DNA from: Steroidobacteraceae bacterium
Lineage (GTDB): Bacteria > Pseudomonadota > Gammaproteobacteria > Steroidobacterales > Steroidobacteraceae
NCBI GenBank assembly: GCA_036393055.1
Contig: DASVWT010000308.1
Location: forward strand, 5,657-69,656
Length of the DNA stretch: 64,000 nt
Direction of reading: 5' to 3'
In this document: one piece after another, positions 2,340-48,953 of the stretch
Layout of the letters: each line of letters opens with the position of its first letter
Position numbering within the stretch: the first letter of the stretch is position 1
Notes under the pieces: model-generated
Databases searched by the model: none
What the model was told of the DNA's origin: nothing
The model's input: the letters and a program-made list of their open reading frames with translations, nothing else
Made by a program: the position numbers and the translations under genes

Positions 2340-3869
2340 TCAGGCAGCGCGCGACCGGGTCGCCGGCCACGGTTGGAGCCGCGCCGCGTTCGCGCCTGCA
2401 GCCCGCCCCGAGATCATCGCTTCGGTCAGGTAAGAGCCGTTCTGATAGAGATTGGAGAACATCGACCCGAGCTCACCGGCCTCATACAGACGCGGAATCG
2501 GCGTGCCGTCGTGACCCAGCACCTCGGACTCTATGTTGCGCCTGGCGCCGCCGCCGGTACAGACGATCGCCGGCAGGATCTCGATGGCGTAGAAGGGCGG
2601 CTTATCGATGGGCGCAAGGGTCTCGCGGGTGCGTCCGAACTCCTCGTCCTTTCCGCGCGCGCAGCTCTCGTTATATCGCCTCACCGTTTCGGCCAAAGCA
2701 GCCGGGTCGCGCTGGATCTTCTGCGCCAGCGCTTCAATCGAGTCGGCACGCGCGATCCAGCCGCGGCTGACTTCCGCCGCGTTGTCCTCACTCCACTCGT
2801 ACTTCTCGACGACCGTATTCCACGTCATCACGGTGGTGACCAGGCGATTGTACACGCGGGTGGTCTCATCGAAGATCATGTGCATCGGCAGCACCCGGTG
2901 GTGCGGCGTGTCGATCCACTCCCCGTGCTCGCGCTGCTTGTAGTGCGTCAGCTGCCATTCCCCGGTCTCGTTGAAGAAGCGGCGGTGATCGCGGCCGATG
3001 TCGATCCAGCTGAAGCTCTGCCAGAAGAGCTGGCGCAGGAACACCGTGTCGTGGCCCGGGTAGCGAAAGCCCGGCCAGATGCCGCCCGACTGGCCCTGAT
3101 TGCGCAGGTGCCACATGTCGGCGCCCGCCTTCTGCAGGATCCGGATGCCGTCGCCGTCGTTGCCCGGGGTTCCCAGCGGATGGGCGTGGGCCAGGCCGAA
3201 GTAGTTGCGCTGCATGTCGAGGTTGTTCTCGAACCCGCCGGTGCAGAGCACGACGCCTCGGCGCGCCCGGACGTTGAGGCGCTTCCCGCCGGACTCCACC
3301 ACGGCACCGAACACCTCGAGAGTGTCCGGATCCTGGATGAGATCGACGATTCGCGACTCGAAGCGCCTGCGGATGCGCGTCCTGCGCTCCACGCAGGCGT
3401 GGAAGGCGAGCCATACCCCGCTCGGGACCGGCAGGATGGTGGCGGTGTGCGCCACCGCTTCGGCGGCGCCGAATTCCGGGAATTCGAGCACCGCGATGCG
3501 ATCGGACCAGCCGGTCCCCTGGACGTACTGCGCTCCCGCCTCGGCGGCACGCTGTTGAATGTAGGGCTCCAGGGCCACCATCCGGCGCGCCCAGGCATCG
3601 AGCATGTCCTCCGGAATGGGATTCGGGGCGCTCATGGCGCGCTGATAGCTCTTCAGCGCCTCGAGGTTCTTCGAGATCAGCAGCGACTGGCCCGATACCC
3701 GGGAGTTGCCGCCGCAGAGGGCCTCCGGCATCTTCTCGAGGATCAGGACATCGATCTTCGGATCGGCGTCATGCGCCTCGATCGCCGCCGCCGCTCCCGC
3801 CATGCCGAAGCCGCAGATGAGGACGTCCGTTTCCTCGTGCCACTCGCTCACACTATTCAAACTTGCCAT
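2340..3869 (-). CDS. FAD-dependent oxidoreductase (fumarate reductase/KstD-like flavoprotein family)
   Basis: 509-aa ORF. N-terminal dinucleotide fold DVLICGFGMAGAAAAIEA..LILEK..GGNS. C-terminal FAD-closing motif RLYEAGELGS. GGGAG RBS. Confidence 0.85.
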   Translation of the reverse strand: MASLNSVSEWHEETDVLICGFGMAGAAAAIEAHDADPKIDVLILEKMPEALCGGNSRVSGQSLLISKNLEALKSYQRAMSAPNPIPEDMLDAWARRMVALEPYIQQRAAEAGAQYVQGTGWSDRIAVLEFPEFGAAEAVAHTATILPVPSGVWLAFHACVERRTRIRRRFESRIVDLIQDPDTLEVFGAVVESGGKRLNVRARRGVVLCTGGFENNLDMQRNYFGLAHAHPLGTPGNDGDGIRILQKAGADMWHLRNQGQSGGIWPGFRYPGHDTVFLRQLFWQSFSWIDIGRDHRRFFNETGEWQLTHYKQREHGEWIDTPHHRVLPMHMIFDETTRVYNRLVTTVMTWNTVVEKYEWSEDNAAEVSRGWIARADSIEALAQKIQRDPAALAETVRRYNESCARGKDEEFGRTRETLAPIDKPPFYAIEILPAIVCTGGGARRNIESEVLGHDGTPIPRLYEAGELGSMFSNLYQNGSYLTEAMISGRAAGANAARLQPWPATRSRAA

Positions 3870-23720: not shown

Positions 23721-23723
23721 GCA

Positions 23724-24398
23724 ATGACCCGACTCCCTTACTCTTGCCTCGTCTTCGCCCACCTGCTCCTCTTCGTCCTGTGGCTCGGGGGTGACGTCGG
23801 CGTCTACACACTCGGCCGCCACTTCCGTATGCGCGCCCGCTACAGCATCGAGCAGCGGCTCGCGCTGCTGAAGCTCCTCGTGGCAATCGACATGGTGCCG
23901 CGAACCGCCTGGGCCCTGATGGTTCCGGTGTCCCTCTCCGTCGTCGCGGCGGGCGGTTACTGGGCGGTACCGCGCTGGCTGCTGGCGCTGGCGTGGATCG
24001 CGGGGCTTCTCTGGACCTGGCTCGTCTGGGATGCGCACGCGCACGAGCGGACGCCACGGGCGGCACGCGAGCGGCGCGTCGAATTCTGGCTGAAGATCGT
24101 GCTGGCGCTCTTCTACCTCTGGCTGGGAAGCGCTTCGCTCGCAACCGGAGCGCCGCTGACAGCCGCGTGGCTGGCCGTGAAGGCGCTGGCGTTCGGCCTG
24201 ATCTTCGGTGCCGCCACGATGATCGATGTCGCCTACCGGCCGGTCGGCGCACAGCTCGGCCGTCTCCTGCGCGAGGGCTCGAGCGATGCCACCGAGCTGC
24301 CGCTGCTCGTGACCATGAACCGCACGCGCGCGTGGGTCTGGACGGTGTATCTGCTGCTGTTGGTGACCGCATTTCTCGGTGTCGCAAAACCCTTCTGA
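23724..24398 (+). CDS. integral membrane protein, unknown function (paralog A)
   Basis: 224 aa, about 5-6 hydrophobic helices. N-terminal LVFAHLLLFVLWLGGDVG; C-terminal LLVTAFLGVAKPF. Paralogous to the next gene. Confidence 0.7.
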   Translation: MTRLPYSCLVFAHLLLFVLWLGGDVGVYTLGRHFRMRARYSIEQRLALLKLLVAIDMVPRTAWALMVPVSLSVVAAGGYWAVPRWLLALAWIAGLLWTWLVWDAHAHERTPRAARERRVEFWLKIVLALFYLWLGSASLATGAPLTAAWLAVKALAFGLIFGAATMIDVAYRPVGAQLGRLLREGSSDATELPLLVTMNRTRAWVWTVYLLLLVTAFLGVAKPF

Positions 24399-24451
24399 TC
24401 CGCGGGCGCCATCCAACCGACCCACTCCTCCGCAGCACCCAAAGGTGAGCC

Positions 24452-25114
24452 ATGCTCCCGCAGGCACTGCTCGTCGCCCATATCGCCATCGTCGGCTACT
24501 GGCTCGGCTCGGAGCTGGTGATCAACAGCACCTATCGCCAGGTGTGCTTCGGCGCCCGGCTACCGTTCCCGGAGCGCAATCGGATGATGGAGCACGTCAT
24601 GGAGGCCGACCAGCACGTGCGTTATGCGCTGGCCCTGCAGGTCGCGACGGGTTTCGCTCTCGCGGCGCTGTACGGCTTCATTCCGGGCGGCGGTACCGCC
24701 GCCTGGATGGCCGCCCTATTCGGGGCACTCTGGCTCACGTTCATCGAGACCGTGCATCGCCTGCGCCACGCCCCCACGGGCCGCCGCCTCGGCGCGATCG
24801 ACCGCGGCTCCCGCTACCTGTTGATGGCCGTGCTGTTGTGCATCGGCGCCGGCCTGATCGGCCGCGGATGGGGCACCCCCGGCTGGCTGCGCCTGAAGCT
24901 GGCGCTCTTTGCCGGCGTAATGGCATGCGGCGTCGGCATCCGGATCGTGCTGCTGGCGCACTTCCGCGTTTGGAAGGCGATGGCGCAAGATGGTCCGACC
25001 GACCACGGCAACGCGCTCATCCGAAGCATCTACATCAAAGCGACGTCGATTCTGGGATTCCTCTGGGCGCTGATCGCCTGTATCGTCATCATCAGCGTCT
25101 CGAAGCCCATGTGA
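24452..25114 (+). CDS. integral membrane protein, unknown function (paralog B)
   Basis: 220 aa, AAAGGTGAG RBS. LLVAHIAIVGYWLGSELV, WLRLKLALFAGVMACG; C-terminal IVIISVSKPM. Confidence 0.7.
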   Translation: MLPQALLVAHIAIVGYWLGSELVINSTYRQVCFGARLPFPERNRMMEHVMEADQHVRYALALQVATGFALAALYGFIPGGGTAAWMAALFGALWLTFIETVHRLRHAPTGRRLGAIDRGSRYLLMAVLLCIGAGLIGRGWGTPGWLRLKLALFAGVMACGVGIRIVLLAHFRVWKAMAQDGPTDHGNALIRSIYIKATSILGFLWALIACIVIISVSKPM

Positions 25115-28511: not shown

Positions 28512-29795
28512 TTAGTGCGCTTCCGCAGCCGTAAGACCTGCTCCGGCCGAGTCTCCCCCAGCCGCGGGATAGCGTCCGAGCAGCAGCAGCACTGCGCCCG
28601 TGGCGGCGAACATGAATATATCGGCTATGAGAATCGAGTCGTAGCTTCCCGTGCGGTCGCGCACCATTCCGTAGAGAATCGGCGAAATCGATGCTCCGAT
28701 GACGAAGGCCAGATAAAGGGTGCCGTAGATACGCCCGTAATGCGCCATCCCGAAATACTTGGCCGCGAGATACGCGATGATGTCGGACTCCGCTCCCACG
28801 GCGAACCCGAGCAGGAAGCCGGCGATCATGATCGAAGGTGCGTTGCCCGCCGTGCCGAGCAGCATCCAGCACGCAAGCGCCGTCACCAGCATTGCCGGAC
28901 ACGCTATCGCCGGCGCCCAGAGGTGGTCCATGAGAATTCCGGTCAGCAGCCGGGAAAAGAGAATGCCAAAGGCCGTCAGCGTGATCACGCTGGCGGACGC
29001 GCGGGCCGACAGCCCGTGCAGCTCGGCAATCTGCACGACGTTGATCTGCGCGCCAATATCGGCCAGAGAGATGGCCAGCACCGCAAACACCAGCACCCAG
29101 AACCGATAACCGCGGAGAGCCTGTACGAGAGTGATGCCGATCAGACGGCCGCGCGTATCGGCGACGCCCGCCGGATACTCTTCGGGCCGCGGGTCACGCA
29201 GCCAGAGCAGACCGACCGGTACCGCGATCAGCAGCGGAAGCAGCGCCGCCGCGGGAAATACCGCCTGCCACCGGGAGGTGGCGGACAACACGGTCTGAGC
29301 GACTTGCGGTACCGCCAGAGCGGCCGCACTGCTCCCCAGAAGCATGACGGCAAGCGCCAGACCGCGATTGCGCACGAACCACATGTTCACGGCGCGGCTG
29401 AAAATGAGGGGCGTCGAGCCGATGCTGACCACACCGAGAAGTGCCCACAAGGCGCAATACCCGCTCACGGAATTCGACAGGAAGTAGAACGACCCGAACG
29501 TGAGTCCGAAGGCCGTCATCGACCACAGCGCCACCGGCCGCACGCCGATTCGATCGCAGAGAGCGCCGAATACCGGCGCGAGCAACGCGGCGACTATCCC
29601 GAAGATGGAATATCCCATGCTGATGAGGGTGAAGTCCCACCCGGACTGGACGTGGATGGGCCCCATCACGATCGGCAGTACGTAGAAGGGGACCGGATAG
29701 GCGCCGCAGGCCACGCCGACGAAGCAGGCCGTGAGCGGCTTCCACCCTGCCCCGAACTCCAGGTAACCGCCGCCTTCGAGTCCAAACCTGCTCAC
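28512..29795 (-). CDS. MFS transporter (paralog of 47552-48829)
   Basis: ORF track 28512..29882 begins at a TTG inside the operator palindrome. The start is reassigned to GTG 29795, which overlaps the stop of a leader uORF (GTGA). Begins ..GWKPLTACFVGVACGAYPVPFYVLPIVMGP; multi-TM. Confidence 0.8.
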   Translation of the reverse strand: MSRFGLEGGGYLEFGAGWKPLTACFVGVACGAYPVPFYVLPIVMGPIHVQSGWDFTLISMGYSIFGIVAALLAPVFGALCDRIGVRPVALWSMTAFGLTFGSFYFLSNSVSGYCALWALLGVVSIGSTPLIFSRAVNMWFVRNRGLALAVMLLGSSAAALAVPQVAQTVLSATSRWQAVFPAAALLPLLIAVPVGLLWLRDPRPEEYPAGVADTRGRLIGITLVQALRGYRFWVLVFAVLAISLADIGAQINVVQIAELHGLSARASASVITLTAFGILFSRLLTGILMDHLWAPAIACPAMLVTALACWMLLGTAGNAPSIMIAGFLLGFAVGAESDIIAYLAAKYFGMAHYGRIYGTLYLAFVIGASISPILYGMVRDRTGSYDSILIADIFMFAATGAVLLLLGRYPAAGGDSAGAGLTAAEAH

Positions 29796-29821
29796 CAGCG
29801 CACCGCCGAGAGATTCACCAT
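29792..29821 (-). CDS. leader uORF (MVNLSAVRW, 9 codons)
   Basis: AGGAG (29830-29826), 4 nt, then ATG 29821. Reads ATGGTGAATCTCTCGGCGGTGCGCTGGTGA. Its TGA overlaps the GTG of the MFS gene by 4 nt. The same architecture occurs upstream of the paralogous MFS gene. Confidence 0.45.
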   Translation of the reverse strand: MVNLSAVRW

Positions 29822-29870
29822 TGGTCTCCTGCTTTCGCCGCCCGCAGTATCGAGCCGCGCCCCGGACAGC

Positions 29871-29910
29871 TTGTCCGGACAACTATTGGGGAGAATCGCA
29901 AGGCTGTCAA
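29871..29910 (-). promoter_or_regulatory. sigma70-like promoter with perfect palindromic operator TTGTCCGGACAA at the start site
   Basis: Minus strand: TTGACA (29910-29905), 17 nt, AATAGT (29887-29882), immediately followed by TTGTCCGGACAA (29882-29871). A half-site TGTCCGG repeats 3 nt further downstream. Confidence 0.55.
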
Positions 29911-29979
29911 GCGCATCCCCCGCGTCCGCCGATCCCCGGCGTGCGTTTGCCCGATTCTCCATCTTCGCCCATGCGAACG

Positions 29980-29999
29980 ATTCCAACTCCGGCGGGAAT
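29980..29999. promoter_or_regulatory. inverted repeat ATTCC-N10-GGAAT (candidate LysR-type binding site)
   Basis: ATTCCAACTCCGGCGGGAAT in the MFS/LysR divergent intergenic region. This is the dyad type expected for LTTR autoregulatory sites. Confidence 0.3.
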
Positions 30000-30106
30000 G
30001 TCGGACTCGATGGCGGGCCGCGCCGCCGCGCGCATTGGCTGGTCTGCCTTGGGTTCGGCCGGTGTCTCATCCAGGCACGGGCCATCGGGGTCCTTCTGGA
30101 CCGTTG

Positions 30107-30115
30107 TGCTATATA
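30107..30115 (+). promoter_or_regulatory. TG-extended -10 (TGcTATATA) 6 nt upstream of the LysR start codon
   Basis: TGCTATATA at 30107-30115; ATG at 30122. No room for an RBS, which implies a leaderless or near-leaderless transcript. Confidence 0.35.
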
Positions 30116-30121
30116 TACGTC

Positions 30122-31072
30122 ATGGATCTTCGACAGCTTCGCTACTTCCTGGCCGTTGCCGAGCTCGGCAGCTTCACCCGCGCCGCATCCGCGATCGGCC
30201 GCACCCAACAGGCGCTCAGCAAGGGAATCCAGGCGCTGGAGCACCAGCTCGGCGCGCGCCTGTTCGAGCGCGGGGTCCGCGAAGCGAGGTTGACGCCGGT
30301 CGGACGATTGCTGGTGGACCACGCGCGCGCCGCGGACGAGGCGGTACGCACTTTCGAAGAGCGCCTGGAAGAGCTGCAGACGGGCCGGGAGGGCGAAGTC
30401 AGGATAGGCACGAGTCCGACGACGTCCGGATACCTGGTGGCGCCCGCGGTTCTGGCGTTGCGCCGTATCTGGCCCCGAATCGGCGTCAAGGTCATCAGCG
30501 GCTTCCTGCCGGATCTGTTGTCCGCCCTGCTGGCTCGGGAGGTGGACGTCGTAGTGGCGATCCATATCCTGTCTGATCTGGAAAGCGGAACCGACTCGCG
30601 CATCCGCACCGAGACGCTGATGCACGACGTATGCTGGGTGGTCGCTAGCGCGCATCATCCGCTGGCCAGGCAGCGCAACATAACCCTGGCGCAATTGCAG
30701 AAATGCTCGTGGGTGCTGGGGAGCCGTCATGCCGCCGCACAGAACGCGTTCCGCGAGCGCTTCAGACGGGCCGGGCTGGAGCCGCCTCTGCAGCACACTG
30801 AATCGACGTCCCTCGGGTTCGTGCGGGTGCTCGTTCATGAGGCGGACTACCTCGCCTTGTTGCCCACGCGCCTGGCGCAAGCCGAGCTGGCTGCCAACCA
30901 ATGGGTCAAGCTGGATGTGCCGCAGCTCGAGTGGCGGCTTCCCATCGTGGCTTACACCAGGAGCGCCGAGCCCGAGGCAAACCCGGTGCAGCGCATGCTG
31001 CAGGAGCTTCGGCATGCGGCAGCACAGGCACTGAAGTCGACGGGTGAATCGAACGCCGCAGGCGTCGGGTAG
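30122..31072 (+). CDS. LysR-family transcriptional regulator
   Basis: ORF track 30035..31072, start trimmed to ATG 30122. MDLRQLRYFLAVAELGSFTRAASAIGRTQQALSKGIQALEHQLGARLFER; 316 aa. Confidence 0.9.
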   Translation: MDLRQLRYFLAVAELGSFTRAASAIGRTQQALSKGIQALEHQLGARLFERGVREARLTPVGRLLVDHARAADEAVRTFEERLEELQTGREGEVRIGTSPTTSGYLVAPAVLALRRIWPRIGVKVISGFLPDLLSALLAREVDVVVAIHILSDLESGTDSRIRTETLMHDVCWVVASAHHPLARQRNITLAQLQKCSWVLGSRHAAAQNAFRERFRRAGLEPPLQHTESTSLGFVRVLVHEADYLALLPTRLAQAELAANQWVKLDVPQLEWRLPIVAYTRSAEPEANPVQRMLQELRHAAAQALKSTGESNAAGVG

Positions 31073-34849: not shown

Positions 34850-36325
34850 TCAGGCTCCCGCCTCGGCGTAGGCCGAGAGCGGCGCCGCTTCCGCGGATTG
34901 ACGGATCAGGACGCGGTCGCGCAGGAAGCGCAGCAGTGCGCTGTCGCCCATGCGGGAGGCGCCGAGCCCCGAGTCCTTGAAGCTCGATTTCTCCGCCTCC
35001 CACACCAGCGCGGTGAGGCTGCCGTCATTGATGGAGACCGCGCCAACTTCGAGCCGTGCCCCGATGGCCTCCGCCTCCTCGGCGCTGCCCGCGAGCACCG
35101 CGGCAGACAGGCCGTAGCGGCTGTCGTTCGCGAGCCGTACGGCCTCCTCGGGCGCGTCGAACACGACGACCGGAATCACCGGCCCGAACGTTTCCTCGTT
35201 CATGACGAGCATGTCGCGGGTGAGCCCCGTCATCACGGTGGGCCGCAGATACAGTCCGCCCCCGAGCCGCTGGACGTCCCCCCCTGTGAGCACCCGGGCT
35301 CCTTTCGCGCGGGCATCGTCGATCTGCGCCTGCACGATTGCGGCCTGCTTCTCGAAGATGAATGGGCCGATGTCGCCCCGCCGGATATCGGGGTAATTCA
35401 ACTCCGCGCGCTCGGCCGCTTCCGTGAGCGCTGCCAGGAACGGAGTGGCTATTTGCCGCGCGACATAGACGCATTCGATGGACTGGCAGGCCTGGCCGGT
35501 GTTCACGATGCTCGCGCGCAGAGCGGTCGCGGCCGCCCGGACCGGATCGGCGCTCGCGAGCACGATCATAGGGTCCTTGCCGCCGAGCTCGAGGCTCGCC
35601 GGAATGAAGGCTCGAGCGGCGGCCATGGCGACCTTGCGGCCGGTTGCGACCGATCCGGTCAGGCACACATAATCGACACGCTCGATGAGCGCGGCTCCCG
35701 TCGCGCCATCGCCCTGCACGAAGTCGAGAACTTCCGCGATCTCCGCTACCACGCGAGTGGCCGCGAGGAGCGGCTCGACGAAGCGCGGCGTGATCTCCGA
35801 CGGCTTCACGAGGACCGCGCATCCCGCCGCAAGCGCCGGCACGGCGTCGATTAGCGACAGGACCAGGGGGAAATTCCAGGGACCGATGATTCCCACGAGA
35901 GGGTAAGGCACCGGCAGCGTGGAAGTCGTGATGGAGGGGAAGGCCGTCGGCCGCGACGACCGGGCTCGCTGCGCAAGCAATTCCGGCGCTCGGGCGGCCC
36001 ACCGGCGAATGAGCTGGATGACACTGGCCGTCTCGATCTGCGAGAGCCTGTGTCGGCCGGTATCCGCGGCGAGTGCGCTCGTGATCTGTGCCGCTCGCTC
36101 TTCGATGGCGGCCGCCCAGCGCAGCAGAGCCTGGGCGCGCTCCTGCCCCGGGCGGTGAGACCAGCGTGCCTGGCCCTCGCGCAGCTTCGCCGCGCCGGCG
36201 TCGATCGCCGCGCCGGAGGCCGGCTCGAGCGTGAAATCGATCCTGCCGGTGCGGGGATTGCGCACCCCGATCGTGCCGATGCCGCCGCCGGGGGCAGCGC
36301 TCATCGCCAGGTCGCTCGATTGCAT
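34850..36325 (-). CDS. aldehyde dehydrogenase (paralog of 42994-44412)
   Basis: 491 aa (ATG 36304 alternative). PWNFPL, LTGSVATGRKV, LELGGKDPMIV (Glu), NTGQACQSIE (Cys), EETFGPV. Confidence 0.85.
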   Translation of the reverse strand: MQSSDLAMSAAPGGGIGTIGVRNPRTGRIDFTLEPASGAAIDAGAAKLREGQARWSHRPGQERAQALLRWAAAIEERAAQITSALAADTGRHRLSQIETASVIQLIRRWAARAPELLAQRARSSRPTAFPSITTSTLPVPYPLVGIIGPWNFPLVLSLIDAVPALAAGCAVLVKPSEITPRFVEPLLAATRVVAEIAEVLDFVQGDGATGAALIERVDYVCLTGSVATGRKVAMAAARAFIPASLELGGKDPMIVLASADPVRAAATALRASIVNTGQACQSIECVYVARQIATPFLAALTEAAERAELNYPDIRRGDIGPFIFEKQAAIVQAQIDDARAKGARVLTGGDVQRLGGGLYLRPTVMTGLTRDMLVMNEETFGPVIPVVVFDAPEEAVRLANDSRYGLSAAVLAGSAEEAEAIGARLEVGAVSINDGSLTALVWEAEKSSFKDSGLGASRMGDSALLRFLRDRVLIRQSAEAAPLSAYAEAGA

Positions 36326-36394
36326 GGCTCACTCACCGCAAGACCGCCTTGGGCCGACGGCATGCCCCATCGGTCGCCGCCGGTCCTCTGAAAG

Positions 36395-36410
36395 TTGTTC
36401 GGACATTATG
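36395..36410 (-). promoter_or_regulatory. -10-like CATAAT fused to operator variant (ATGTCCGAACAA)
   Basis: The minus strand reads CATAATGTCCGAACAAC, the same layout as TATAATGTCCGGACAAC at 48994-49010. One mismatch to the palindrome. About 70 nt upstream of the ALDH start. Confidence 0.45.
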
Positions 36411-45995: not shown

Positions 45996-47555
45996 TTACA
46001 GCCCCAGGCTTCCGGGATTCATGAGATGGCTCGGGTCCACCGCCGCCTTCAGCGCCCGCAGGATTTCCCAGGCTTGCGGGTCGAGGGCCTCCCGCAGCGG
46101 ATAGGTGCGCCCGATCTGAAAGTGCGCCGCCCCGAGCGAATCGACGATCTGGATGATGGAGTCGCGTAGACGTGTAACCAACTCTCGTGACGCCTCGTTG
46201 GCTGGAAACCGGGTGAGCTTCGCAAGGTGCGCGGGCTCCACGGTGCGGCGATGCAGCTCCTCGAGAGCATCGGGCCAGTAGAATACGGGCTCGACGACGC
46301 AGGCCGACGGACTGATGGCGGCGAACAGGGCGCCTGCACTCACGCCGTGGCGCTCCATTTCTCCGGCCTCGCGCGCAAAGAGGTCTTGGATCCGCCGCCA
46401 GCCTTCCGCCAGCCGGCCGTGCGGCAACAGGCCGTGCACGGGCAGCCATCGCTCGCCCGCGGGGCCGATCATGGAGTTCAGCGGCGGGAAGGGGTGCGCT
46501 CTGGCCACTTTCGGGATGGTGTTCTCGACCGGGGCTCCGCCTGCCTCGGTGACGAGACGATCGACGGCGGCGAGATCCGCGGCAACGGCGCTCTCATGCC
46601 TGCCCTCGCAGACGACATGAAGCGAGAACGATCCGGCTTCCAGGAACGAGCGCCCCGCGGCAACCACCTTGACCCCTTCTTTCAAGCCCTTCCAGGCGGA
46701 TCCCTGTGCCTTGACGACTGCCAGCAGGGAGCGCGCGTCGGCGGCAATGCTCTCGCGCTTCAACCGCTGCGACTGCAGGTAGGGATCGAAGCCGAAGCAT
46801 TCCGCAGCGAGGCGCTCGCGCGCCACGGCGCTCATGGCGGCAAAGAATCCTTCGGCCGTCGGAAGAGTATACGAGCCGTAAGCGAAGGCCTCCGCCTCGC
46901 GCACCAGTTGCAGCGTCACCGTCGCTTTGATGCCTAGTGCGCCGGTATCGGACGCGAACAACCCCGTGATGTCCGGACCGAAGGGACGGAAGAAGCCGCA
47001 CCCCGTGCTCAACACCCGGCCGTTCGCCAACACGACCTCGAAGCTCAGCGCGCCGTCGACGAGCACACCGTCGCGGGCGCCCCAGAACACGCCGTTCTGA
47101 CTCATCCCGCCGCCGATGGTCGCCTTCAATCCCGAGAGAGTCCCCCAGGCGAGCGCGCGCAGACGGTGCGGCTCGAGCGCGCGGCGCAGATCGGCCCAGG
47201 TGCAGCCCGCCTCCACTCTGGCGGTGAGGTTGACCGGGTCGACATCGAGCACGCGATTCATCGCACTCATGTCGATCAGGAGCGCACCGGGCGAGGAAGC
47301 CAGATAGCCGCCGGTATAGCTGGCGCCACCGCCGCGAGGAATCACCGCGATCCCGCGCGCGGTCGCTGCGGCCACGCCGCGCGCGAGCATCTGGGTGTCG
47401 GTCGGCCGGAAGACTGCCAGGAGCGGCGCGCCCTTCTGGAAGACATCGTGCTCGAAGTAGGCGAGCTCGGCCGCCTCTCTCGAGAGGGCGGTTTCACCCA
47501 CCGCCTGCGCGACCGTGGCAAGGCTGTCGTCGCGGACCATGCTGACGCCGCTCAT
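45996..47555 (-). CDS. FAD-linked oxidase (PCMH/GlcD-like FAD-binding domain)
   Basis: ORF track 45996..47966, start trimmed to ATG 47555 (ATGA overlap with the MFS stop). VIPRGGGASYTGG, then GCTWADL, then a C-terminal oxidase domain. 519 aa. Confidence 0.8.
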   Translation of the reverse strand: MSGVSMVRDDSLATVAQAVGETALSREAAELAYFEHDVFQKGAPLLAVFRPTDTQMLARGVAAATARGIAVIPRGGGASYTGGYLASSPGALLIDMSAMNRVLDVDPVNLTARVEAGCTWADLRRALEPHRLRALAWGTLSGLKATIGGGMSQNGVFWGARDGVLVDGALSFEVVLANGRVLSTGCGFFRPFGPDITGLFASDTGALGIKATVTLQLVREAEAFAYGSYTLPTAEGFFAAMSAVARERLAAECFGFDPYLQSQRLKRESIAADARSLLAVVKAQGSAWKGLKEGVKVVAAGRSFLEAGSFSLHVVCEGRHESAVAADLAAVDRLVTEAGGAPVENTIPKVARAHPFPPLNSMIGPAGERWLPVHGLLPHGRLAEGWRRIQDLFAREAGEMERHGVSAGALFAAISPSACVVEPVFYWPDALEELHRRTVEPAHLAKLTRFPANEASRELVTRLRDSIIQIVDSLGAAHFQIGRTYPLREALDPQAWEILRALKAAVDPSHLMNPGSLGL

Positions 47556-48829
47556 TCCGGCAGCGGTGCCGGCGTCGGCCGCAGGGACTGCATCGGCTCG
47601 CGCTCGAAGGCCGGATAACGCCCGAGCAGCAGCAGTGCGACACCGGTGATCGCGAACAGCAGCAACGCGATCATCAGGATCTCGTCGTAGCGGCCGGTCC
47701 GATCGCGCACCACTCCATAGGCCACCGGCGACAAGGACGCGCCGATCCCGAAAGCCAGATAGAGCAGTCCATAGATGCGCCCATAATGCGCCATTCCGAA
47801 GTACTTGGCGGCGAAGTAGGCGATGACGTCCGACTCCGCTCCGGCCGAGAAGGCGATCAGGAACACGCCCACGACGACCCGCGTCACGCTGGGCGTGGTG
47901 CCGGTCAGCAGCCAGCACCCGAGTCCCGAGAGCAGCAGCGCCGGACAGGCGACCGCCGGCGCCCACACTCGATCGAAGAGGTAGCCGATGAAGAGACGGG
48001 AGGCCAGGATCCCCGTGGCGATGATCCCGAGAGCGCTGGCGGCGAACCGCGGCGTGAATCCGTGCAGCTCCACGATCTCTGCGATGTGGATGTGCGCACC
48101 CGCATACGCGAAGGCGATCAGAAAAACCGCGGCGAGCAGCAGCCAGAAGCGGTAGCCGCGCAATGCCTGTGCGAGCGTGATGCCCGCAACCTGGCCGTGC
48201 TCATCGCAGATGCCGGCGGGCCGCTCCTGCGGCTTCGGATCGCGAAACCACGCGAAGCAGATCGGCAGGGCGAGCAGGAGCGGTAGCAGGGCGACCACCG
48301 GGAAGGCCAGCCGCCAGCCGCCCCAACCGATCGCCGATTGCGCCAGCTGCGGCACCACGAACGCCGCCGCGCTGGTGCCGAGGAGCATGATCGCGAGCGC
48401 CAGGCCGCGGCGGCGAAAGAACCAGATGCTGATGGCCCTGCTGAAGGTGACCGGCGTGGAGCCGATGCCCACGATGCCGAGCAGCGCCCAGAGCGCCCAG
48501 TATCCACCGACCGACCGGGGGGTGAAATAGAGGGACGCGAACACCACGGTGAACGCGACCAGTGAGGCCAGCGCCACCACACGGACGCCGAAGCGGTCCG
48601 CGAGGCCCCCGAACACCGGCGCGAGCAACGAGGCGATGATCCCGAAGATCATCATGCCGGCACTGATGTCGGCGAAGTCCCAGCCCAGCTTGGCATGGAT
48701 CGGGCCCATGACGAGCGGCAGGACGTTGAAGGGAACCGGCGAGGCGCCGCAGGCCACCCCGACGACGGCTGCCGTCAGCGGCTTCCACCCGAGGGCGAAC
48801 TCCCCCCTGCGCGCAGCCTGCGCGCTCAA
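47552..48829 (-). CDS. MFS transporter (paralog of 28512-29795)
   Basis: ORF track 47552..48925 begins at a TTG inside the operator. The start is reassigned to TTG 48829, which overlaps the leader-uORF stop (TTGA). ..GWKPLTAAVVGVACGASPVPFNVLPLVMGP.. Confidence 0.8.
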   Translation of the reverse strand: MSAQAARRGEFALGWKPLTAAVVGVACGASPVPFNVLPLVMGPIHAKLGWDFADISAGMMIFGIIASLLAPVFGGLADRFGVRVVALASLVAFTVVFASLYFTPRSVGGYWALWALLGIVGIGSTPVTFSRAISIWFFRRRGLALAIMLLGTSAAAFVVPQLAQSAIGWGGWRLAFPVVALLPLLLALPICFAWFRDPKPQERPAGICDEHGQVAGITLAQALRGYRFWLLLAAVFLIAFAYAGAHIHIAEIVELHGFTPRFAASALGIIATGILASRLFIGYLFDRVWAPAVACPALLLSGLGCWLLTGTTPSVTRVVVGVFLIAFSAGAESDVIAYFAAKYFGMAHYGRIYGLLYLAFGIGASLSPVAYGVVRDRTGRYDEILMIALLLFAITGVALLLLGRYPAFEREPMQSLRPTPAPLPE

Positions 48830-48858
48830 GGCCGCCACCCGTCTGCCGGTCGATGCAT
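48826..48858 (-). CDS. leader uORF (MHRPADGWRP, 10 codons)
   Basis: GAGGA (48869-48865), 6 nt, then ATG 48858. Reads ATGCATCGACCGGCAGACGGGTGGCGGCCTTGA. Its TGA overlaps the TTG of the MFS gene by 4 nt. Confidence 0.45.
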   Translation of the reverse strand: MHRPADGWRP

Positions 48859-48913
48859 CGTCGTTCCTCGTCTCTTGCGGCGCGGCGACTGAATTGGCGC
48901 CTTCGCGGTCTAT

Positions 48914-48953
48914 ATGTCCGGACAACTCTCGGCCGAATCCGCACGACTGTCAA
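48914..48953 (-). promoter_or_regulatory. sigma70-like promoter with palindromic operator at the start site (MFS/oxidase/methyltransferase operon)
   Basis: Minus strand: TTGACA (48953-48948), 17 nt, GAGAGT (48930-48925), then TTGTCCGGACAT (48925-48914). Same layout as 29871-29910. Confidence 0.5.

Follow-up and report, generated by a model that had tools for sequence, protein, structure and literature searches.

Two paralogous genes for transporters of the major facilitator superfamily (MFS) lie on the minus strand of a 64,000-nucleotide (nt) stretch of contig DASVWT010000308.1 from a Steroidobacteraceae bacterium (hereafter the window, with positions counted from its first letter). Our subject is the leader of the first gene (W1, 28512-29795), in which a promoter, an operator-like palindrome and a nine-codon upstream open reading frame (uORF) precede a GTG start codon; the second gene (W2, 47552-48829) and a series of related loci designated by L numbers provide the comparison. 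The archived runs that contain this DNA hold soil-metagenome DNA only.

The promoter of W1 is the only one returned by a promoter scan of 29700-30150 (one found versus 0.1 expected), a sigma-70-like TTGACA-17-AATAGT with 10/12 matches. Its -35 hexamer and the spacing to the palindrome are kept in W2, L032, L034, L035, L036, L037, L039 and L042. The palindrome itself is enriched in the window, with nine sites at two mismatches or fewer versus 1.16 expected and none of 100 shuffles reaching nine, and it stands directly after the -10 hexamer at W1, at W2 and at an HpcH gene of the window, as well as in relatives. This distribution identifies it as the putative operator of a local regulon. The 17-nt promoter spacer (29888-29904) is likewise partly conserved among W1, L032, L034, L035, L036 and W2, as GCG(T/G)TTTGCC / GCGGATTCGGCC; this conservation appears to exceed the neutral expectation and could reflect a second protein contact.

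The longest open reading frame of the W1 transporter (28512-29882, minus strand) opens with a TTG that the first-pass annotation had attributed to the operator, and it is indeed the first triplet of TTGTCCGGACAA. Since the first T of this triplet is also the last base of the -10 hexamer, the TTG cannot be on a transcript from this promoter, which we infer to start inside the operator, past the TTG and about 50 nt upstream of the uORF. Nor is the operator TTG a conserved start: stop codons in the MFS frame separate the operator from the downstream start in L037, L039 and L035. The public gene call for W1 (P0001) likewise gives a protein of 427 aa from GTG 29795, and the next in-frame start downstream lies inside the first transmembrane segment (TM1).

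Between operator and GTG, the roughly 80-nt leader holds a single canonical Shine-Dalgarno (SD) motif, AGGAG, and a single ATG, at 29821, and it is GC-rich. This ATG opens the uORF, out of frame with the transporter, and the uORF stop shares two bases with GTG 29795 (Table 1). Sequence reading and the promoter scan thus bear out every sequence statement made previously about the anatomy of this promoter, operator and uORF, including the good ribosome-binding site and the overlap of TGA and GTG. The assertion that GTG 29795 has no ribosome-binding site was overstated, given that a weak GGTG, complementary to CACC in the anti-SD, precedes it by 5 nt and that most MFS starts of the clade have a weak to good internal SD-like motif (GGTG, GAGGTG or AGGAG). 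The predicted duplex energy is -6.3 kcal/mol at the GTG versus -7.4 kcal/mol at the uORF ATG.

Table 1. Elements of the W1 and W2 leaders in the window.
Feature	Position	Strand	Remarks
W1, -35 hexamer TTGACA of the MFS promoter	29905..29910	-	Promoter scan
W1, -10 hexamer AATAGT	29882..29887	-	Last base, a T, also begins the operator and the TTG that opens the longest reading frame
W1, operator, perfect 12-bp palindrome TTGTCCGGACAA	29871..29882	.	Directly after -10; covers the predicted transcription start
W1, extra half-site TGTCCGG	29862..29868	-	3 nt downstream of the palindrome; read from sequence
W1, SD of the uORF, AGGAG	29826..29830	-	4 nt before ATG 29821; 7 nt before the in-frame GTG codon 2
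W1, uORF MVNLSAVRW-stop	29792..29821	-	ATG + 8 codons + TGA: ATG GTG AAT CTC TCG GCG GTG CGC TGG TGA
W1, stop/start overlap GTGA	29792..29795	-	uORF TGA 29794-29792 and MFS GTG 29795-29793 share 2 nt
W1, MFS transporter gene, OFA-like	28512..29795	-	427 aa from GTG 29795; Pfam PF07690 (MFS_1), E = 4e-37
W2, -35 hexamer TTGACA	48948..48953	-	17-nt spacer to -10
W2, -10 hexamer GAGAGT and operator TTGTCCGGACAT	48914..48930	-	-10 at 48930-48925, then operator at 48925-48914
W2, SD GAGGA	48865..48869	-	6 nt before ATG 48858
W2, uORF MHRPADGWRP-stop	48826..48858	-	TGA 48828-48826 overlaps TTG 48829-48827 (TTGA)
W2, MFS transporter gene	47552..48829	-	425 aa from TTG 48829; Pfam; paralogue of W1

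The same layout recurs at W2, as the first-pass annotation had reported, with a transporter 58% identical to that of W1 and an alternative in-frame GTG within the uORF, 9 nt upstream of TTG 48829. To place both genes, relatives were gathered from three directions. Thirty-one homologous loci with 50-61% identity, nearly all from Sphingomonadales, emerged from a genome scan, and in most of these the MFS gene stands directly behind a TonB-dependent receptor gene, with its own SD-ATG start and an N-terminus of the MT..ARSEF or MSEF type. Closer relatives came from a protein search with contig look-ups, and others from a metagenome scan with the promoter-operator pattern, which returned five loci, namely L037, L039, a methyltransferase promoter (L041) and two that are unrelated. 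A search of a plasmid collection yielded LysR-gene fragments only and no homologous locus. In a maximum-likelihood tree of 43 MFS proteins, every uORF-bearing gene falls into one clade with 100/100 support, resolved as L035; (L042, (L037, W2)); (L036, (W1, (L032, (L033, L034)))). L039 was too short for inclusion in the tree, and its leader is closest to that of W2. The path from W1 to W2 amounts to about 1.4 substitutions per protein site, so that non-coding sequence is expected to be saturated over this distance; the terminal branch of W1 is itself long (0.42).

This clade comprises ten distinct leaders, and eight of them, W1 included, present an SD motif and a start codon followed by 8-12 open codons, with the stop placed on an in-frame NTG or beside it. 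Around W1, the uORFs read MRSSVGLRS ending in GTGA (L032), MRWSARVQW ending in GTGGTAA (L033) and V(V)RASAKLR ending in ATGATGA (L034); L035 has MHVPGTADEERR and GTGA; and the leaders orthologous to that of W2 have MHRPADRWCP with GTGA (L039) and MQRPAERWPP with TTGA (L037 = L047 = L052). SD motifs of 4-5 nt precede the uORF start in seven of the eight. The other two leaders fuse the same SD-ATG in frame with the transporter, which then reads MHRPATLGVPSARAARGGEF... in L042/L043 and MVPMADAK... in L036. Relative to L039, the distance from the ATG to the AGC codon in L042/L043 is 30 rather than 32 nt, the TG of GTGA is absent, and stop and start are both gone. As read from their frames, these fusions show the homologous SD-ATG in use as a real start codon. 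The SD-ATG has been lost in none of the ten leaders. The architecture is thus conserved while the peptide drifts, both between W1 and W2, as previously proposed, and, from alignments and the tree, among eight of the ten leaders of the clade.

Details of change within these leaders speak for selection on the layout. Between the SD and the MFS start, the W1 subclade has a single indel, of 3 nt, as against many in its 5' leader whose lengths are not divisible by three. L034 has three substitutions by which the uORF stop shifted one codon (3 nt) upstream and, at the same time, an ATG arose on the new stop. The MFS start is GTG or TTG in seven of the eight leaders in the uORF state, no other in-frame MFS start occurs before TM1 in these leaders, and the MFS frame of L035 is closed by a stop 12 nt before the overlapped GTG. 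Strain variation points in the same direction. A contig from a strain about 92% identical differs from the W1 promoter and leader by nine substitutions, none of them within the -35, -10, operator, SD or uORF; the probability of avoiding all these elements is about 0.003, from (63/121)^9, and that of avoiding the uORF alone is 0.08. Strain variants of the W1 transporter in soil metagenomes comprise 18 synonymous and five conservative non-synonymous changes, and the gene is, on this pattern, under purifying selection. Among the differences listed for the W2 leader are a His-to-Gln change in codon 2, which gives the residue found in L037, and a change of GAGGA to GAGGT that preserves the SD.

The best explanation of these leaders, in which we place moderate confidence, would be translational coupling by termination-reinitiation, a natural 'bicistronic design'. 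From the sequence comparison we infer that the uORF is translated and that expression of the transporter depends on it. Under this scenario, the repressor-controlled promoter would start transcription inside the TTGTCCGGACAA operator, and ribosomes would load at AGGAG and ATG 29821, the sole strong initiation site in the leader. After nine codons they would reach the TGA, two bases of which also belong to GTG 29795, and terminate there. Either the whole ribosome or its 30S subunit would then stay on the mRNA, probably aided by the weak internal GGTG, and re-initiation on the overlapping GTG (TTG in W2) would yield the MFS protein. The peptide itself would have no sequence-specific role: the leader reading frame would serve to deliver ribosomes to a poor, non-ATG start, thereby fixing transporter output as a fraction of leader translation. 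In a sister clade, an in-frame ATG at about -69 opens a conserved extension of the MSRYD type; together with the fused variants within the uORF-bearing clade, this suggests that the leader reading frame began as a frameshifted N-terminal extension rescued by re-initiation.

Several observations weigh against this interpretation. SD-like motifs of their own precede most transporter starts, with GGTG 3-11 nt upstream in W1, W2, L032 and L039, GAGGTG in L037 and AGGAG in L035, and independent initiation at such internal motifs could supply some or all of the MFS protein. In L033, an in-frame ATG lies only 5 nt after the uORF ATG. The two in-frame fusions show that the uORF state is dispensable. 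Only ten distinct leaders are known, several of them from close relatives, and the device is specific to one clade and not general outside it: in the promoter-proximal L044-like clade, in which an MFS gene and a CN-hydrolase gene form an operon and which had been predicted to carry the uORF, L044 has an 8-codon uORF devoid of an SD (TGATG), and L048 and L050 have none and an SD of their own. Finally, uORFs do arise by chance, as in the many receptor-linked homologues that start with ATGACG and have accidental upstream reading frames ending there, and the arrangement at a single locus is well within chance expectation.

The first of these points leads to a model, unlikely in our judgement, in which the uORF is translated without driving the transporter, which would initiate by itself at the weak internal SD and the GTG or TTG. 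In that case the uORF would have no effect, or a mildly inhibitory one if ribosomes on it occupied the overlapping start, and it might descend from an old frameshift in an N-terminal extension that was dispensable. Besides the motifs before most MFS starts, the difference of only about 1 kcal/mol between the duplexes at the W1 GTG and the uORF ATG fits this model, as do the sister-clade extension and the fused L042 and L036, which suggest an origin of the uORF from an N-terminal extension. Occlusion of ribosome-binding sites by closely spaced upstream ones has also been described (PMC13285730). A neutral uORF, however, should have lost its SD-ATG, its frame or its overlap in some of ten diverged leaders, and none has; the length of the one uORF indel is divisible by three, the stop and start of L034 shifted together, and the non-ATG state of the transporter start prevails in seven of eight leaders.

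Chance, in the sense of an untranslated short reading frame that is a by-product of a GC-rich leader and an NTGA start (NTG followed by AGC or ATC), appears distinctly improbable. As a null model, each leader was dinucleotide-shuffled with its start codon and the following bases fixed, and scored for an ATG reading frame of 4-20 codons ending on the same stop. Such uORFs appeared in 20-36% of trials, and in 3-16% together with a comparable SD; the corresponding values for W1 are 27% and 8%. The case therefore rests on conservation in relatives. Accidental uORFs resembling those of the clade occur in the receptor-linked homologues and in L044, and the HpcH gene of the window has a pseudo-uORF that ends on ATGA and begins upstream of the likely transcription start. 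Against chance stand the retention of the arrangement, including an SD before every uORF start, by eight of the ten leaders in a deep clade, the role of the homologous SD-ATG as the MFS start in L042 and L036, and the position of ATG 29821, the only ATG of the W1 leader, directly after its only canonical SD. A rough joint probability is about 5e-4 (0.09 x 0.06 x 0.1), from per-locus values that include the SD, taking three deep sublineages as independent and ignoring retention within sublineages.

A third possibility, that of a regulatory leader peptide of the tetA(L), cmlA, ermC or tnaC type, would have the nascent peptide or a Trp/Pro-stop termination stall the ribosome in response to the compound transported or to some other small molecule and thereby gate re-initiation or mRNA structure; we consider it very unlikely. 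The W2 subclade offers some encouragement, with a fairly well kept M-[HQ]-R-P-A-[DE]-x-W-x-P and a Pro-stop end and with a synonymous CGA-to-AGA change that separates W2 from L037. The gene downstream encodes a transporter, like tetA(L) and cmlA, and at 8-12 codons the uORFs resemble known short sensing leaders in length. Across the clade, however, only Met1 is common to the peptides (compare MVNLSAVRW, MRSSVGLRS, MHVPGTADEERR and MHRPADGWRP) and there is no conserved arrest motif. Only three close relatives end in Trp-x-Pro-stop, and the TGG conserved in the W2 subclade falls within an internal SD-like motif, GGTGG. The fused variants do without the device altogether. A Trp near the stop was considered as a common feature and rejected, being absent from L032, L034 and L035. 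In RNA structure, five folded leaders gave z-scores of +1.21, +0.72, +1.41, +0.57 and -0.47 against shuffles, with no shared helix and no evident alternative hairpins; given this lack of excess stability and of a shared hairpin, a transcription or translation attenuator was rejected. Rfam gave no match up to E = 1 on either strand of 29600-30100.

A narrower version of sensing, in which slow termination at the Trp/Pro-UGA end over the MFS start would gate re-initiation by the transported substrate or by translational status, is highly improbable; if true, it would add to the operator a switch of the tetA(L)/TnaC kind on a transporter for catabolic uptake. Earlier, the arrangement had been read as a device for either termination-reinitiation or leader-peptide control. 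The comparative evidence favours the former. The latter is not supported, since the peptide is not conserved, the leaders show no attenuator fold and Rfam gave no match. Programmed -1 frameshifting from ATG 29821, or a sequencing error behind the frame difference, might be imagined from the in-frame SD-ATG of L042 and L036 and can be practically dismissed, as the W1 and W2 uORFs contain no slippery heptamer (X XXY YYZ) on inspection, eight independent assemblies of different samples agree on the out-of-frame state, several soil runs show no indel at the site, and the stop always falls on an in-frame NTG.

Other members of the transporter family and other parts of the window provided further observations. 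Short relay reading frames lie between the upstream gene and the MFS gene at L021 (about 2965-3000), L028 and L029 (about 2975-3000) and L010 (about 2955-2995). Specifically, in L028 and L029 the receptor stop overlaps the ATG of a five-codon reading frame (TGATG; MSGGG or MGGGG), the TGA of which overlaps the MFS ATG in another TGATG; L021 has TGATG, six codons (MKECRG) and then TTGA; and in L010 a 12-codon reading frame runs from inside the end of the upstream gene to the MFS start, which it meets in a GTGA. A direct overlap of MFS ATG and receptor stop (TGATG) is seen in L005 and L009. Taken together, these junctions suggest that coupling in chains is frequent among transporters of this family. 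In L017 (2870-2955), the MFS leader behind an operator-bearing promoter holds a decayed 3' remnant of a TonB-dependent receptor gene (..SLxNTxYIxPPMxW..F-stop-like); the order receptor-MFS therefore looks ancestral, with the receptor apparently deleted in L017.

In the clade with the CN-hydrolase gene, the MFS start codon lies inside operator-like sequence at L044:1501-1512 and L048:1201-1212. The L044 site, ATGTCTGGACAG, is one mismatch from TGTCCGGACA, and the L048 site, ATGTCCGGATTG, is a half-site; both loci have two full operators upstream in addition, and a third repressor site may thus cover the start codon. An aldehyde dehydrogenase gene of the window sits behind an operator-like site, CATAATGTCCGAACAA, and has a leader reading frame of its own (36325-36406, minus strand; ATG..MGHAVGPRRSCGE-stop, 13 codons), the TGA of which ends 3 nt before the aldehyde dehydrogenase ATG. 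Proteins of about 225 aa that have no Pfam match are encoded by a tandem pair at 23721-25114 of the window, and genes of similar size, also devoid of a Pfam match, lie between HpcH and MFS in L044 (533-1213) and L048 (280-963).

For annotation, the practical consequence is that the longest-reading-frame start, the TTG in the operator, is wrong for this clade, and that the right starts are the GTG or TTG codons overlapping the leader stop. More broadly, these leaders provide a clean comparative example of a bacterial uORF that appears to be kept for its position and not its product, a claim that usually rests on single-species reporter assays. The natural fusions L042 and L036, beside eight out-of-frame relatives, would allow initiation and re-initiation to be compared directly on the same gene, and they hint at how such leaders originate, by a frameshift in an N-terminal extension followed by rescue through re-initiation. 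The mechanism is already established, and what is described here is a well-conserved new example and no conceptual advance.

Among known systems, leader peptides provide one point of comparison: the tetA(L) gene of Bacillus subtilis has a leader peptide with tetracycline-dependent re-initiation, and cmlA and cat also have leader peptides. There, as here, a short leader reading frame stands directly upstream of an MFS-type transporter gene; the transporter is translated there, and would be translated here, in connection with the leader. Those systems respond to ribosome-targeting drugs via specific peptide or RNA features, whereas no conserved peptide, alternative hairpins or antibiotic link was found in the present leaders, and the gene belongs to a catabolic regulon.

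The original version of the synthetic bicistronic design (BCD) is reportedly that of Mutalik et al. 2013. BCD cassettes (PMC10367133) share with the leaders described here a first SD, a short leader cistron carrying a second SD, and a stop of that cistron joined directly to the start codon that follows, an arrangement whose purpose is reliable initiation independent of the gene's 5' sequence. By contrast, the present example is natural, its second SD is weak (GGTG) and its second start is non-ATG, and output is probably set low rather than maximised. Overlapping gene pairs, of which 13/14 were strictly coupled (Huber et al. 2019, PMC6728339), have the same 4-nt stop/start overlap and an SD-like motif inside the upstream reading frame; such internal SDs are typical in these pairs and usually assist re-initiation (PMC6728339). 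By analogy, translation of the downstream gene would be expected here as well to depend strictly or largely on the upstream reading frame. The upstream partner in our leaders, unlike that of the gene pairs, is a reading frame of 8-12 codons with no conserved product and not a protein-coding gene.

The closest parallels are the uORFs of Sinorhizobium meliloti, in which ATGA overlaps drive downstream genes and start-to-stop mutations of the uORF lowered or abolished expression of the main reading frame (PMC13285730), and the short reading frames 'delivering' the ribosome in mycobacteria (reviewed in PMC12548453). In both cases, as in the window, the 5' leader contains a short reading frame that has an SD and a start to itself and whose stop overlaps the main start in NTGA. 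The S. meliloti example and ours were treated as alphaproteobacterial in this comparison. In the present leaders, the main starts are GTG or TTG (GTGA, TTGA) rather than ATG. The putative device stands behind a repressor operator on a transporter gene and is documented across a clade that includes natural in-frame fusions.

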